A DNA stretch of 64,000 nucleotides, taken from the NCBI GenBank assembly GCA_036490515.1, contig DASXDU010000039.1, positions 4,140-68,139 of the forward strand, written 5' to 3'. How positions within the stretch are numbered: position 1 is the stretch's first letter; the number at the start of each line of letters is the position of its first letter. A program made the translations under genes and the position numbers. The DNA is from Polyangiaceae bacterium. Its GTDB lineage: Bacteria > Myxococcota_A > Polyangia > Polyangiales > Polyangiaceae. Positions 3,854 to 62,330 of this stretch are shown here, in pieces. A model generated the notes under the pieces. That model did no database searches. It worked only from the letters and a program-made list of their open reading frames with translations, and was not told the origin of the DNA.

Positions 3854-6508
3854 TCAGTGCTGGAGGCCGATGCTCGCGAAGGGAATCGCCTGGAAGCCCG
3901 GGAGCGCGAACGCGGGCGAGGCGTCCTGCAGGGTGAAGTCCCCCGCGGCGGCGTCGACGAAGAGCGGATCGGCGTCGGCGAGGTTGTCGCCGAAGTGCGC
4001 GTAGTAGCCGATGGTGGCGTCTCCGTCGTCGGAATAGAAGACGCCGTTCTGGAACGAGACGTTGTCGGCGAAGACGGTGCCGTAGGGCGTCAGCCAGTGC
4101 GAGCCCGCCTCGACGACGGCGCCGCAGTCGTCGGGGATGGCGGCACAGCTCGGGTACGTGCTCGCCCACGGGTCCTCCCGGTAGTTGAGGGCCTCCAGCT
4201 GTCCGATGAAGTCCGCGTTGGCGCCAGGCGTGCACGTGGCCGAGACGTTGTTCGCGCAGTAGGCCGTCGTGACGAGGGCGCCCGAGCTCCCGTAGACGAC
4301 GTTGTTCGTCATCGTCACGTCGTGGCCGCCGTTGTGGAAGATCGCCTGACCGACGACGTTCGCGAGCACGTTGCCGGTCACGGTCGGCCCGCTGAGGCAC
4401 CCGTCGAGGTAGACGCCGTGGATGCCGAAGCCGCTCTGCTTCGTCGCGAGGTCGTGGATGAAGTTGTACTCGATGACGTTCCCGTACGAGCCCCAGTCCG
4501 AGTACGAGTACACCGCGCCGGCGTCGCTCGTGAAGCGGAGGACGTCGTGGATGTCGTTGTAGGCGATGAGGTGCTGGCTGCTCCCGTAGAAGAGGATGGC
4601 CGCGTGGGGCGAGCCGTAGATGACGTCGTGCTGCACGACGTTCCCGTCGCCGGAGAGGTTCACGGCGGGCGTGTACGACCAGACCCACTCGCCGTAGTCG
4701 TGCAGGACGGTGTTCTGCACGACGTTCTTGCCGGGAGTGAGGCTCGGTCGGTCGCCCCCGCCGAGGTCGACGCCGTCCTCGCCCTCCGCGTAGAAGAGGT
4801 CCCCGTCGAAGACCTCGTCCGTCCCGTCGACGACCTGCGCCGCCGACTCGCCTGCGTCGCGGAGCGTGCAGCCGACCACCTGCACGTCGCTCGAGCCACC
4901 CTTCAGGACGAGCAGCTGCGCACGCGACGCCTCGAGGGTCACCTCCTGGAGGACCACGTGGCTCGCGCCCGTGACCGTCACGAGCGGCGCCGAGAGGGTG
5001 GAGACGACGAGGTCGTGCTGCGCGAGGTTCGCAGGAGGCCAGAGGTAGAGGAGGCCGCTCGTGCGATCGAGGTACCACTCGCCGGGCTCGGTGATCTCCT
5101 CGAGGAGATCGTACGCGTACACGGGCGAGGGTCCGCCACCCTGGACGGCGGCCTTCAGGTCGCCGTCGTAGGGGGCGCCGGTCACGGCGATGGTGCCGGA
5201 GGAAGGATCGACCGACGCGACGGGCAGGTGGTTGTCGGCCCACGGATAGGCGAAGAAGCCGTGCACCCAGGCGTCCGGGGCATGCGTCCAGCGCGCGGTG
5301 CGGTTCGTGGTCAGCGTGAACGAAGACGCAGACGCCGTGGCGACGCGGGCGAACCCGTCGATGACGGCGGTCGGGTCGACGAAGGAAGGCGTTCCCGTGG
5401 CACCCTGCGCGTCGGACAGCGGACCGAGATCGGCCTGGTACGTGTAGAAGAACGGGTCGCTCGCGGACGGATAACCCGTCGTGCTGGTCGTGAGAAACCA
5501 CGCGACCCAGGTCGCGGCGGTCATGCGATAGAGGTGATACGCCTTGCCGCCGACGAGCCCCTGGCGCGTGAAGGACGAGACGCCGTCCTGCACGGAGTCC
5601 TTCAGATAGAGCCCCGACACGTCCGGCACGAGGCCTGCGCCGTACACGGTGACCTGGGTGCCGAGCGGGTTGGGAGGCGCACCGGCCGGGTCGTCCTCGT
5701 CGGCATCCGGCCAGCGGCCGAGGGGCGCGCGCTGGCCGTCGATGAAGAGCTCGAGCGCCGCGGGGACGCCGGTGACGAAGACGCCGCGCGCCTGGAGCGT
5801 GCCGTAGTCGATCCCGAGCGACGTGAGGTCGGCCGCAACGACGGTCCCCTGGGCGGTGGGATCGAGGCGGCTCCAGACGGGCGACGTCGAGGGCACGGTC
5901 TGGAAGGTCGCCGGATCGAGGGAGACGCCGCCGACGACGCGCGCAGTCTCGCCGGGGTACCCGCGATAGACGACGGGAGCGTTCGCTTGCCCCGAGTCGA
6001 GGCTCGTCAGCGCGAACGTCGCAGCACGTGGATAGACGCCGCCGCGGAGCCAGACGACCACGCCGCCCGCCGGCAAGGGTCCGGCTGCGACGAGCGCGCG
6101 GACCGCCGTCTGCGCGCGCTCGAGGGTCTTGAAGGGCGCCGCGAGCGTGCCCGCGGCGGCGTCGTCGCCCTGGGGCGACACGGCGAACTGCGCGCCGTAC
6201 GTCGCGCACGTGCAGGCGCCCCACGCGCTTCCGTCCGCGAGGCAGCGGCGCGTCCCGATTCCCTGCGAGCAGGTGCAGCCGGTGACCGCCTCGGCCGTGC
6301 ACGCGCCGCCACCGCCGTCGGCGACGGGAGCATCGCTCGCCACGTCGGCGCCTCCGTCGGCCGGGGGCAGGCTCGCATCGCTCCGCGCGCCCGCGTCGAG
6401 TCCCATCGAGGGACCATCCGCCCCCGCGTCGGCGCGCTCGCCGCCGGCTCCCGCGCTCGACGTCGAGCATGCCGCGAGCAAGACGAATCCGAGCGCCCAC
6501 TTCGCCAT
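3854..6508 (-). CDS. Right-handed parallel beta-helix repeat lipoprotein (pectate-lyase-fold, probable polysaccharide-active enzyme)
   Basis: Track ORF 3854..6589(-), trimmed to ATG 6508 (MAKWALGFVLLAACS lipobox). Cys-rich module CTAEAVTGCTCSQG..C..GACTC. Repeated coils NVVQNTVLHD, NVVQHDVIYG, IAYNDIHD, NVIEYNFIHD, TVTGNVLANV, TMTNNVVYG. Confidence 0.8.
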   Translation of the reverse strand: MAKWALGFVLLAACSTSSAGAGGERADAGADGPSMGLDAGARSDASLPPADGGADVASDAPVADGGGGACTAEAVTGCTCSQGIGTRRCLADGSAWGACTCATYGAQFAVSPQGDDAAAGTLAAPFKTLERAQTAVRALVAAGPLPAGGVVVWLRGGVYPRAATFALTSLDSGQANAPVVYRGYPGETARVVGGVSLDPATFQTVPSTSPVWSRLDPTAQGTVVAADLTSLGIDYGTLQARGVFVTGVPAALELFIDGQRAPLGRWPDADEDDPAGAPPNPLGTQVTVYGAGLVPDVSGLYLKDSVQDGVSSFTRQGLVGGKAYHLYRMTAATWVAWFLTTSTTGYPSASDPFFYTYQADLGPLSDAQGATGTPSFVDPTAVIDGFARVATASASSFTLTTNRTARWTHAPDAWVHGFFAYPWADNHLPVASVDPSSGTIAVTGAPYDGDLKAAVQGGGPSPVYAYDLLEEITEPGEWYLDRTSGLLYLWPPANLAQHDLVVSTLSAPLVTVTGASHVVLQEVTLEASRAQLLVLKGGSSDVQVVGCTLRDAGESAAQVVDGTDEVFDGDLFYAEGEDGVDLGGGDRPSLTPGKNVVQNTVLHDYGEWVWSYTPAVNLSGDGNVVQHDVIYGSPHAAILFYGSSQHLIAYNDIHDVLRFTSDAGAVYSYSDWGSYGNVIEYNFIHDLATKQSGFGIHGVYLDGCLSGPTVTGNVLANVVGQAIFHNGGHDVTMTNNVVYGSSGALVTTAYCANNVSATCTPGANADFIGQLEALNYREDPWASTYPSCAAIPDDCGAVVEAGSHWLTPYGTVFADNVSFQNGVFYSDDGDATIGYYAHFGDNLADADPLFVDAAAGDFTLQDASPAFALPGFQAIPFASIGLQH

Positions 6509-6653
6509 GCGACTCGTGCAGCAAGGAGCGAGCCTGCCGCGCGATGGGCGCGGCGGCGCCGCGCGGAGCAACGGCGGTGTCGCCTGCACCCTTCGAGTGT
6601 AGGGCGCACCCGACGAGCCGCGCGATCCGTTCGCGGGATTCCCGAGCGGAAGG

Positions 6654-8140: not shown

Positions 8141-8472
8141 GCTTTCGGGGGCACGATCCAGGCGACGATAATTAAGTAGTTCCGTACCACCTGAGCCGTG
8201 TGTCGGTCGACATGAACCCCTAGCCAACGGCTAGGTGGGGAGCGTTGACCGCGCTTAAGGCTTCCGAGTTTATCCGCCCCTCGCGGAGCGGCCCGGCATG
8301 CTCACCGAGCGGTCATGGCCCCCCTGGTTCAAATTCGCAAGGGATCCATGTGATGCCGACAATCACGAACCTGGCAGAGGGAACACGTCGAACATAACAC
8401 CCGGCCCCACTCGGTCAACGCACCGAAAAGTGGGCCGCGCGCTTCGCCGCATGCCTACATCGAGCGCGTCCC

Positions 8473-57039: not shown

Positions 57040-57161
<122 letters not shown>

Positions 57162-57181
57162 ACTACGGGCGCGAGCGCGGA

Positions 57182-60528: not shown

Positions 60529-60652
60529 GGAGGACCTCGCTTGTACGATGGAATCGATCCGAGGGCGAGCAAGACCGCAGTGGCGAAACCGTGACGCGGT
60601 GCACTCCTCTACGCAGGGGAAACGAGAGGGGGAAACAGGAAGCGCCCTTCTC

Positions 60653-61072
60653 TCAGGAAGCGCCCTTCTCCGTCGGCTTACCGGCCTTTTCCCAGCCGTG
60701 GATGCCGGCGGGCATGATGTAGACCGACGTGTACCCGAGCTTTTCCGCCGCGACCGCGGCGGTATGGCAAGCGTGTCAAAGCTCGCTTGCGCAGTAGAAG
60801 ACGAGCGTCGCGCCCTTGTCGGCCGGTAGGTCGGCGGCGGTGACGTTGTCGTAGTCGAGCCACTTGGCGCCCGGGACGTGGCTCTTCTCGAAGCGGTCCT
60901 TCGGGTTGTTGTCGAAGACGTACGTCTTGCCGTCGTGGGCGGCGATGCGCGTCGCGACCTCGTCCACCGTCAACGACTTGAGGTCGGTCGACTTGGCGCA
61001 CCCCAGGGTGCCGACGCCCAGCGCGAGGCACGCGAGGATCGCGAAGAGGGAGAGGAGAACCCGTCGCGTCAT
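60653..61072 (-). CDS. Rhodanese-domain lipoprotein with in-frame TGA (60776-60778); candidate selenoprotein
   Basis: Track ORF 60776..61072(-) ends ...FYCASEL. The same frame continues HACHTAAVAAEKLGYTSVYIMPAGIHGWEKAGKPTEKGAS to the stop at 60653-60655, completing the rhodanese fold. Lipobox LGVGTLGC. Confidence 0.6.
60745..60762 (-). promoter_or_regulatory. SECIS-like hairpin 13 nt after TGA 60776-60778
   Basis: mRNA sequence CCGCCGC-GGUC-GCGGCGG, a perfect 7-bp stem. The apical GGUC begins 20 nt after the UGA. Confidence 0.45.
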
Positions 61073-61087
61073 GCGAGGGACCTTACC

Positions 61088-61945
61088 TCAAGAGTCGGGA
61101 CGCGTCCCGTCGCCACGGTAACGCGCCAGATCGAGGTGGAAGTGGTTGCGGTGCGCGGCGTTGAAGAACGGCGTGAGCACGTGCGAGAAGACGTCCTCGT
61201 CGAACGCGCGCCGCGAGATCGCGCGGAGGAACTGCCCCGCCGGCCGCTTCGGCGCGTCCTCGCCGAAGTCGAAGTCGCGCTGCACCTCGACGGCGACCCC
61301 GTTCTTCAGGACGAAGCGCGCGAGGTCGATGGCGTTCGCGTAGCTGTGTTCGCTCACCCACCCCGGATACGCGACGATCTCGCGGCAGCTGTACGTGCCG
61401 AGCTGCGTCACGCGCACGACGGGTGAGCGGAACGTGCGGAGGGCCTCCTCCTGGAGGATCTTCTCGAACGACGCCAGCGCGAGCGCCATCGTGCACGTGA
61501 GCAGCGGCGGCGGGTCGTAGGCGATCTCGCCGGGCCCGCGCCCGTAGACGACGACCTGCGGGGCGCCGCACGTGAGCTTGCCGTGGTGCTCCTCGTGCAC
61601 GGGAAGCGAGGCCGCGCGGCTGCGGATGCCGGCCGCCGCGAGCTTGCCCTCGCAGTCGTCGAGGAGATCGGGAGGGCCGACGACGTAGTCGTCGGAGGGG
61701 TCGACGTTGGCGTAGGCGCCGGGGCGGGGGGCGGGGGCGGGCGCGAGCGCGGGCGCGGGCGCGGGGGCGAGCGCGAGCGCGAGCGCGGGCGTGGGCGGGG
61801 GCGCGGGCGTGGGCGTGGGCGTGGGCGCGGGCGTGGGCGTGGGCGCGGGCGTGGGCGTGGACGCGGGCGTGGGCGCGAGCGCCGTGGGTCCTACCCCTGC
61901 GTCGCAGGCGGAGAGGACGACGACGGCCAGGATCGCAGCGCGCAT
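61088..61945 (-). CDS. Extensin-like C-terminal domain lipoprotein with long Pro-Ala/Thr linker
   Basis: Distal 285 codons of track ORF 61088..62281(-), ATG 61945 (MRAAILAVVVLSAC). The C-terminal region SEHSYANAIDL..F..N..H.NHFHLD is the extensin-like/DUF (peptidase-like) signature. Confidence 0.75.
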   Translation of the reverse strand: MRAAILAVVVLSACDAGVGPTALAPTPASTPTPAPTPTPAPTPTPTPAPPPTPALALALAPAPAPALAPAPAPRPGAYANVDPSDDYVVGPPDLLDDCEGKLAAAGIRSRAASLPVHEEHHGKLTCGAPQVVVYGRGPGEIAYDPPPLLTCTMALALASFEKILQEEALRTFRSPVVRVTQLGTYSCREIVAYPGWVSEHSYANAIDLARFVLKNGVAVEVQRDFDFGEDAPKRPAGQFLRAISRRAFDEDVFSHVLTPFFNAAHRNHFHLDLARYRGDGTRPDS

Positions 61946-62033
61946 GGGCGTCCCTACGGATGGACGCCCCCGATGGTCTTCGCATTCCAGCCACGTTGCG
62001 CGACGCAGGCGCTCGGTCACCCCAGTCGGTCGA

Positions 62034-62252
62034 TCAGGTTGCGACGCGCGCGCGGATCTCCGCCCACGGGACGCCCGCGCCCCCCGCCAGCGCCTCGCGT
62101 GCGCGCCGCTCGGCGAGCTCCAGCCATGCCTGGTCCGCTGCGGTGTCGGGGTCTCGTTCCAGGCTTGCGACGAGCTCGGCGGCGAGCTCCTCGCGCTCGT
62201 CGGAAGACAGCTCGAGGGCGCGTGAAAGCAAGTCGTGCGCGGCAGAGGACAT
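62034..62252 (-). CDS. Putative addiction-module antitoxin component (orphan)
   Basis: 72-aa protein. LLSRALELSSDEREELAAELVASL....AWLELAERRARE...G fits the putative addiction module component pattern. No toxin ORF follows. Confidence 0.6.
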   Translation of the reverse strand: MSSAAHDLLSRALELSSDEREELAAELVASLERDPDTAADQAWLELAERRAREALAGGAGVPWAEIRARVAT

Positions 62253-62330
62253 GCGCAAAGTCTATGCTCTGGGCTCATCACGAGCCAGGGGCGCTGCCCC
62301 TCGGCCAGGGGGGTCGCGCGCGGCTTCGGC

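Follow-up and report, generated by a model that had tools for sequence, protein, structure and literature searches.

Does a TGA codon end a rhodanese-like gene in a Polyangiaceae bacterium, or does it encode selenocysteine (Sec) inside a longer one? The codon lies at 60776-60778 on the reverse strand of the stretch of DNA analysed here, 64,000 nucleotides of contig DASXDU010000039.1 (assembly GCA_036490515.1), referred to below as the window. The frame opens at the ATG 61070-61072(-), reads MTRRVLLSLFAILACLALGVGTLGCAKS...TLVFYCASEL and then meets the TGA; past it, the same frame adds 40 codons (HACHTAAVAAEKLGYTSVYIMPAGIHGWEKAGKPTEKGAS) and is closed by a second TGA at 60653-60655. The comparisons reported below make it highly probable that the first UGA encodes Sec and that the gene specifies an exported rhodanese-like selenoprotein of 139 residues. 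They indicate that the UGA lies inside a gene that is conserved and translated, that it replaces a Cys, that it is always accompanied by a hairpin fixed in position, and that a lineage carrying the gene has selA. The features to which the text refers are the following.

60653..61072 (-): complete candidate selenoprotein gene, with 139 sense codons, Sec as codon 99 and a terminal TGA stop (from translation, Pfam and homologue lengths).
60776..60778 (-): in-frame TGA, codon 99, the proposed Sec codon and end residue of the active-site loop C-A-S-E-L-U (from the Cys column of the homologues and the recurrent TGA).
60653..60775 (-): the 40 post-TGA codons and true stop, predicted to supply the remaining helix, strand and helix of the rhodanese fold (from Pfam coverage, the AlphaFold model of a Cys homologue and pN/pS, the ratio of non-synonymous to synonymous change).
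60791..60793 (-): TGC, Cys94, the canonical rhodanese active-site Cys (..FYC..), invariant in homologues and aligned with the catalytic Cys of 6mxv, YgaP and 1yt8.
60767..60769 (-): TGC, Cys102, a third Cys that gives U-x-x-C at the start of the post-loop helix; U-x-A-C-H in 28/28 TGA genes (defined below).
60745..60762 (-): hairpin within the coding sequence, resembling a Sec insertion sequence (SECIS), with a 7-bp stem and apical loop GGUC; it starts 13 nt after the UGA.
60736..60785 (-): possible extended lower stem CGAGCUUU / AAAGCUCG enclosing the UGA and the hairpin (minimum free energy (MFE) fold; weak and not Sec-specific).
60998..61072 (-): predicted signal peptide ending in a lipobox-like T-L-G-C (Cys25 at 61000-60998), hence a probable lipoprotein.

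Conservation of the reading frame beyond the TGA

The initial annotation had placed the TGA inside a gene of 139 codons, and only the read-through product of that length encodes a whole rhodanese domain. It matched the Pfam Rhodanese profile (PF00581) from position 2 to 101 of 102 (E 3.9e-13, 50.1 bits against a cut-off of 22.2), whereas the 98-residue product obtained without read-through covered merely positions 2-70 of 102.

Among 5.8 billion proteins searched, 326 relatives were found, and the best 120 clusters were classified by their C-terminal extent. In 82 of these 120 clusters the protein terminates exactly four residues past F-Y-C, at the TGA position, 57 of them as ...FYCASEL. The other 38 are full length and have, at the point of the TGA, C-x-x-C-H (34 clusters) or C-x-x-S-H (4 clusters). 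Full-length homologues measure 133-164 residues. Whether a Cys of the homologues aligns with the TGA had been raised as a test, and it does so in every full-length homologue: the TGA column is Cys in all 18 full-length sequences of alignment A1, and Cys is invariant there in the 37 full-length homologues of alignment A6.

The genomes themselves were then scanned, one genome per GTDB species, which gave 57 loci. At the codon that follows F-Y-C-x4, 27 other Myxococcota/Polyangia genomes have a TGA; the window gene and those of these 27 further species-level genomes are called the 28 TGA genes. The carriers belong to Polyangiaceae, Polyangium and Haliangiales, and include a Byssovorax metagenome-assembled genome (MAG) and MAGs named 'Myxococcales', 'Myxococcota' or 'delta proteobacterium'. 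All 28 genes continue past the TGA as U-x-A-C-H-x-x-A...LGY...MPAGI.GW..AGK, for 37-44 intact codons. The 29 other loci have TGC or TGT, that is Cys, in this column; a few of them read C-x-A-C-H, including that of the cultured Byssovorax cruenta JCM 12614, and many read C-x-A-S-H (Kofleriaceae and others).

Among the 28 orthologues the pooled pN/pS past the TGA was 0.37, which argues that this stretch is translated; the 60 codons before the TGA, some of which belong to the variable N-terminal region, gave 0.66. An alternative reason for the many homologues that end at the TGA was thus not borne out, as 27 further genomes keep the TGA together with a continuation under purifying selection. The final stops of the 28 genes are TGA (20), TAG (7) and TAA (1). 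With TGA as the commonest terminator, UGA still functions as a stop in these organisms, so that recoding of the internal UGA has to be a local event.

The part encoded after the TGA was placed on a structure by means of the AlphaFold model of a Cys homologue (P0002) that is 63% identical to the window protein. The confidence of this model (predicted local distance difference test, pLDDT) is 89, and about 98 in the domain and across the post-TGA part. In the model a strand ends at the catalytic Cys, and the Sec position matches the final residue of the active-site loop. The helix with the third Cys begins at residue 98 (P0002 numbering), two residues past the Sec-aligned Cys; the strand and helix specified by the post-TGA codons come next. 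Foldseek searches with the model returned rhodanese domains only. In alignments to 6mxv, YgaP and 1yt8, Sec99 falls at the loop Arg of C-x-x-G-x-R[ST] and is followed by a two-residue insertion.

The wider rhodanese family comprised 1,867 representatives at E <= 1e-10, tandem multi-domain proteins among them. Tandem arrays of related rhodanese domains, with 2 to 13 matched stretches, were seen in P0121-P0126, P0141, P0226 and P0264 of the representative library, and P0141 reaches 2,327 residues. Several two-domain relatives combine C-x-A-S-H sites with Cys/Lys-rich N-terminal repeats (for example the GGKDCDK repeats of P0125). Two minor observations concern the 3' end of the window gene. It has 40 post-Sec codons, compared with 38 in close relatives, and its real stop codon lies within a perfect tandem duplication of 18 nt (GAGAAGGGCGCTTCCTGA / GAGAAGGGCGCTTCCTGT on the coding strand, window 60636-60670).

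The hairpin downstream of the UGA

The hairpin has the stem, loop and coordinates first described for it: CCGCCGC (60762-60756) pairs with GCGGCGG (60751-60745), and the loop GGUC (60755-60752) starts 20 nt past the UGA. It had been taken for a bacterial SECIS on the basis of its geometry, and the other genomes agree with that proposal. When a stem of 6 bp or more whose loop falls within nucleotides +23 to +30 was scored as a hairpin, one was found in 28/28 TGA genes versus 2/29 of the homologues with a Cys codon (Fisher p 3e-14, a value that overstates independence, the sequences being related). The four closest Cys forms, of the C-x-A-C-H type, have it in 0/4 cases. Synonymous recoding of the same peptides predicts a hairpin in 9.9 of the 28 genes, against 28 observed. 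In all 28 the stem is 6-8 bp long and the loop lies 20-22 nt after the UGA.

The published model of bacterial SECIS elements requires a loop of 3-9 nt and a stem of 4-16 bp at 16-37 nt from the UGA, as well as a G in the first two loop positions and an MFE of at most -7.5 kcal/mol (PMC13188914). These constraints are satisfied by 28/28 TGA genes, the rule on the G position included. The window hairpin passes with its GGUC loop, 7 bp, a spacing of 20 nt and -14.1 kcal/mol.

The stems vary from clade to clade (CCGCCGC/GCGGCGG, CCGCUGC/GCAGCGG, GGGCGC/GCGCCC, GGCCGCCG/CGGCGGUC), and in a gap-free codon alignment they occupy three pairing registers while the position of the loop is kept. In the two larger register classes, 94.5% and 97.1% of the cells are paired; controls in which the register was slid were all lower (22.9-81.4%). 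Compensatory changes were found at three pairs in these two classes (GC8/CG4/AU1, CG6/GC2 and CG9/UA1). The loops of the 28 genes are GGUC (11), CGUGA (9), CGGGA (2), CGUGC (2), and CGGGC, AGGUA, GGUCA and GGU (1 each). If the hairpin is a SECIS, it is one kept inside a coding helix by differing sequence solutions, with three registers and eight loop variants.

The extended lower stem was dropped as evidence for a SECIS, as the GAGC/GCUC complementarity on which it is built is also present in Cys-codon homologues.

Selenocysteine machinery and alternative readings

Genes for Sec synthesis were sought through SelA, in which the stretch around GDKLLGGPQAG, the pyridoxal phosphate (PLP)-site motif, is identical in Escherichia coli and Aquifex. 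Metagenome contigs scanned with a high-G+C back-translation of this motif gave 120 loci, and cluster look-ups identified SelA types of Myxococcales, Binatia, Capillimicrobium and Vicinamibacteria, one of which is labelled 'L-seryl-tRNA(Sec) selenium transferase [Myxococcales bacterium]'. The truncated rhodanese cluster of one TGA orthologue (locus L019) holds the accession HEX9602225.1, near the SelA accession HEX9602668.1. Both genes are in the MAG GCA_036393595.1: SelA (P0273) on DASWGQ010000076.1 and the TGA orthologue (L019/P0435) on DASWGQ010000023.1. The same two exact proteins are also both present in the assembly WNEY01. Against the selA equivalog TIGR00474, P0273 reaches 490.7 bits (cut-off 267.9), and the L019 rhodanese gene has the hairpin, with the loop CGUGC. 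An orthologous TGA gene thus shares a genome bin with the gene for the enzyme specific to Sec-tRNA synthesis. The contig links between SelA and the rhodanese comprise a complete TGA gene with its hairpin in this one MAG (DASWGQ01); in a further SelA-linked MAG (DASWGI01) the rhodanese gene is partial, being cut by the contig end. A tRNA-Sec has been reported in a Myxococcota isolate, Archangium gephyra (PMC5441343).

Several observations were made on the SelA loci themselves. In the Myxococcales loci L185-L192 and L195-L200, selA is followed by a conserved HNH-endonuclease gene and, where the flanks are longer, by an 89-residue open reading frame, a pseudouridine synthase gene, Rsm22 and MiaA. 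These loci depart from the usual selAB operon in that selB does not adjoin selA, and they have no tRNA-Sec nearby. An abundant high-G+C SelA type accounts for 15 of the 120 metagenome loci (L076, L089, L091, L133, L137, L142 and others) and adjoins a selB homologue in at least L089. Ranking of the SelA loci by tetranucleotide composition was not discriminating, as a Binatia contig came first.

A number of results weigh against Sec insertion in the window organism. The 64-kb window contains no tRNA genes and no tblastn match to E. coli SelA, SelB, SelD or FdhF. The 32 loci of the family (31 rhodanese loci and L001, the JGI contig of the window) have zero tRNAs, and no SelA, SelB, SelD or FdhF homologue was found by tblastn at the rhodanese loci. 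selA is the sole machinery gene located in GCA_036393595.1, where selB, selC and selD were not located; no match named Polyangiaceae appeared in the SelA homologue searches, and the machinery link rests on a related 'Myxococcales bacterium' MAG, which is a bin and not a clone. The gene neighbourhoods provided no conserved partner among the Sec forms that would suggest a substrate (a fatty-acid desaturase neighbour is common to the closest relatives only).

Other such points concern the hairpin. The folding energy of the window hairpin is by itself unremarkable for DNA of 72.5% G+C, as here (z -1.18). Compared with synonymous shuffles, the mean energy z was -0.99 for TGA genes and -0.11 for Cys forms (p 4e-4), a signal that is weak per sequence, and only 2/28 TGA genes reached p<0.05. 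The hairpin owes something to the Ala-rich coding sequence in which it lies, and the 28 sequences are not phylogenetically independent; the modest energy z-scores are explained by the ready folding of Ala-rich, G+C-rich coding sequence. Finally, gathering and permissive Rfam scans detected no SECIS family (elsewhere they gave a 6S RNA and two chance matches), a null result that is uninformative, Rfam having no general bacterial SECIS model. Taken across genomes, the comparative sequence data nevertheless indicate that the hairpin is carried far beyond chance.

The alternative that best withstands these data is programmed or leaky read-through of the UGA, in which a near-cognate tRNA would insert a standard residue (Trp, Cys or Arg) and the hairpin would be a mere stimulator. 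The sequences establish that the UGA is translated and that a hairpin is conserved, but do not tell which residue is inserted, and the lack of Sec machinery in the 64-kb window agrees with this reading. However, every homologue devoid of the TGA has Cys at that place, which is the classical signature of Sec; the hairpin obeys the loop and spacing rules of SECIS elements, down to the G in the first two loop positions of all 28 genes; and the MAG of one orthologue contains selA. Near-cognate read-through is inefficient in bacteria, and the keeping of the TGA site in 82 of 120 clusters argues for efficient recoding. We therefore regard insertion of a standard residue as improbable.

If the TGA were a true stop, the gene would encode a truncated or decaying rhodanese, or a functional fragment of 98 residues, and the next 120 nt would be non-coding. 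All databases annotate the gene in this way, and the catalytic Cys is upstream of the stop. This reading is, however, very hard to reconcile with a downstream frame that is intact in 28/28 genes and shows an excess of synonymous change, and with a post-TGA part that encodes conserved core elements of the fold. A pseudogene would not hold the TGA, the frame and a covarying hairpin over 27 species.

The database entries agree with the prediction that gene callers would give the 98-residue product alone (P0001 in NCBI, JGI and Logan; the NCBI label is 'MAG TPA: rhodanese-like domain-containing protein [Polyangiaceae bacterium]'). Five contigs from independent assemblies (three JGI metagenomes, one SRA run and one NCBI MAG) carry the TGA gene in identical form, so that a local sequencing error is ruled out and the truncation can be ascribed to the gene callers. 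A misread TGC or TGG, conceivable in a window that comes from a metagenome assembly, can be set aside, as the TGA recurs in these independent assemblies, in 27 other genomes and, for the L019 form, on at least 24 contigs.

Known relatives, proposed mechanism and locus surroundings

The protein was compared with catalogued selenoproteins. Rhodanese-like selenoproteins have been divided into five forms, UxxS, UxxG, CxU (NF041203), UxxG and UxxxxU (TsoB, NF045694); form 1, UxxS, is that of Geobacter sulfurreducens WP_010941598.1, and forms 2 and 4 are both UxxG (PMC13188914). The initial annotation had invoked rhodanese-related sulfurtransferases as described selenoproteins. The class is indeed established, but the described forms differ from the window protein in the place of Sec or in the motif. 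What they share with it is the PF00581 fold, a Sec within or beside the active-site loop, and Cys homologues. The read-through protein scored below the cut-off of every selenoprotein model of NCBIfam; its best matches, both of them local, were to TsoB and to NF041203 (LYCAU).

TsoB has two Sec residues (UxxxxU) and a DsbD-like fusion in about 570 residues, whereas the window protein has 139 residues, one Sec and no membrane domain, and its gene has no neighbouring selenoprotein genes. On NF045694 the window protein scored 39.9 bits and that of L019 47.6, for a cut-off of 805, and the window match is local, limited to profile positions 94-158. Sec99 probably corresponds to the second Sec of TsoB, judging from the equal spacing of C-x4-U and U-x4-U. 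On the model of form 3 (NF041203) the scores were 37.3 bits for the window protein and 41.9 for L019 (cut-off 115); its motif L-Y-C-A-U has Sec at +2, compared with +5 in F-Y-C-A-S-E-L-U of the window protein. In forms 2 and 4 Sec would replace the catalytic Cys, to judge from C-x-x-G-x-R, whereas 28/28 TGA genes keep TGC (Cys94) there. Form 1 differs from the U-x-A-C-H of the window family in its published motif, UxxS, and may be a Sec version of the C-x-A-S-H subgroup of the wider family. In conclusion, the C-x4-U-x2-C-H rhodanese is a further, apparently uncatalogued form that has an unusual Sec position and predominates in Polyangia; the mechanism and the protein class are already known.

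Outside selenoproteins, TIGR03865 ('PQQ-dependent catabolism-associated CXXCW motif protein'; PQQ, pyrroloquinoline quinone) gave a local match to the C-terminal half, including C-x-x-C (residues 84-136, E 5.4e-9). The score is 36 bits for a cut-off of 128; this is not a selenoprotein family, and the window locus has no PQQ gene context.

The resemblance of the hairpin to the E. coli fdhF SECIS, which the initial annotation had pointed out, was confirmed on NC_000913.3. There the Sec codon is followed by CAC GGC CCA UCG GUU GCA GGUC UGC ACC, so that UGA-CAC and the apical GGUC are common to the two genes, as is a hairpin that lies within the coding sequence and directly follows the UGA on its 3' side. 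From the UGA to the start of the loop the distance is 18 nt in fdhF and 20 nt in the window gene. The window stem is a perfect 7-bp G+C stem that lacks the bulged U of fdhF, a nucleotide important in the fdhF SECIS. Other clades of the window family depart from fdhF in the loop as well, using CGUGA, CGGGA, CGUGC, AGGUA or GGU.

From these comparisons the following mechanism can be proposed. During translation, UGA codon 99 would be decoded as Sec, with the GC-rich hairpin 13 nt downstream (loop GGUC) serving as bacterial SECIS; it would bring SelB-GTP-Sec-tRNA(Sec) to the ribosome, where this complex would compete with release factor 2. Termination would occur at the second UGA, 40 codons on, which has no such hairpin. 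In the protein, Cys94 (catalytic), Sec99 (final loop position) and Cys102 (first turn of the next helix) would form a triad, C-x4-U-x2-C-H. Sec99, the more nucleophilic residue, would attack a persulfide or similar adduct on Cys94 or else join Cys94 in a selenenylsulfide; Cys102 would then resolve the intermediate, as in UxxC oxidoreductases. The protein might thus act in the periplasm in redox reactions or chalcogen transfer through a Cys94/Sec99/Cys102 relay, a role that we propose with much lower confidence than the presence of Sec.

The periplasmic location is suggested by the N-terminus, where most homologues keep a hydrophobic stretch followed by [GA]-C. In the window protein, ...GVGTLG-C25 fits the PROSITE-type lipobox rule, and a lipobox Cys is likewise present in L007, L010, L012 and L021. 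It is replaced in L017, L019, L022, L026 and L029 by an A-x-A signal-peptidase-I site (AARA|EE). The rhodanese is probably exported in all orthologues, lipid-anchored in the window organism and soluble in the periplasm in the A-x-A clades.

Somewhat tentatively, we suggest that these genes may represent a Myxococcota-wide family of exported rhodaneses with Sec at the classical Arg position of the loop and a Cys-x4-Sec-x2-Cys relay, the Sec form being in the majority in largely aerobic soil Polyangia. Such a protein would be a selenenylsulfide shuttle on a rhodanese scaffold, an arrangement undescribed for single-domain rhodaneses, and would give the Polyangia a selenoprotein in their cell envelope. 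The occurrence of U-x-x-C, C-x-x-C and C-x-x-S within one family would provide a natural series for the contribution of selenium to rhodanese chemistry. A literature search found nothing on selenoproteins in Polyangia; in two reviews of selenoproteomes, 'myxo' and 'polyangi' have zero occurrences (PMC13188914), as does 'myxococc' (PMC9312934). Dozens of myxobacterial MAG records carry the gene as a 'rhodanese-like' or 'hypothetical' protein of 90-110 residues. Current NCBI selenoprotein models miss it; many of the records would be put right by a family model that includes a Sec exception.

Other coding frames interrupted by TGA were looked for in the window and at the loci, and only the rhodanese family was found, apart from adjacent genes in the same frame. 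Downstream of the rhodanese gene of L028, positions 5543-6635(+) contain four TGA-separated segments in one frame, with a high third-position G+C; this run is probably an antisense-frame artefact of high-G+C DNA. A 'TCCSS' extension after the Kofleriaceae Cys forms was rejected, being just the overlapping next gene, which starts at GTGA.

Elsewhere in the window, a 6S/SsrS RNA at 8180-8383(-) is a full-length match and the sole Rfam family (57.5 bits, gathering threshold 46.4). Two arrays of the hexamer (GGGCGC)n flank the rhodanese gene. The first (57040-57180, 23 copies) is between genes, 3.5 kb downstream; the second (61722-61882, 27 copies) is 0.65 kb upstream, inside a Pro/Ala/Thr-rich linker of the open reading frame 61088-62281(-), whose copy in L002 has a match to PF06904 (Extensin-like_C).

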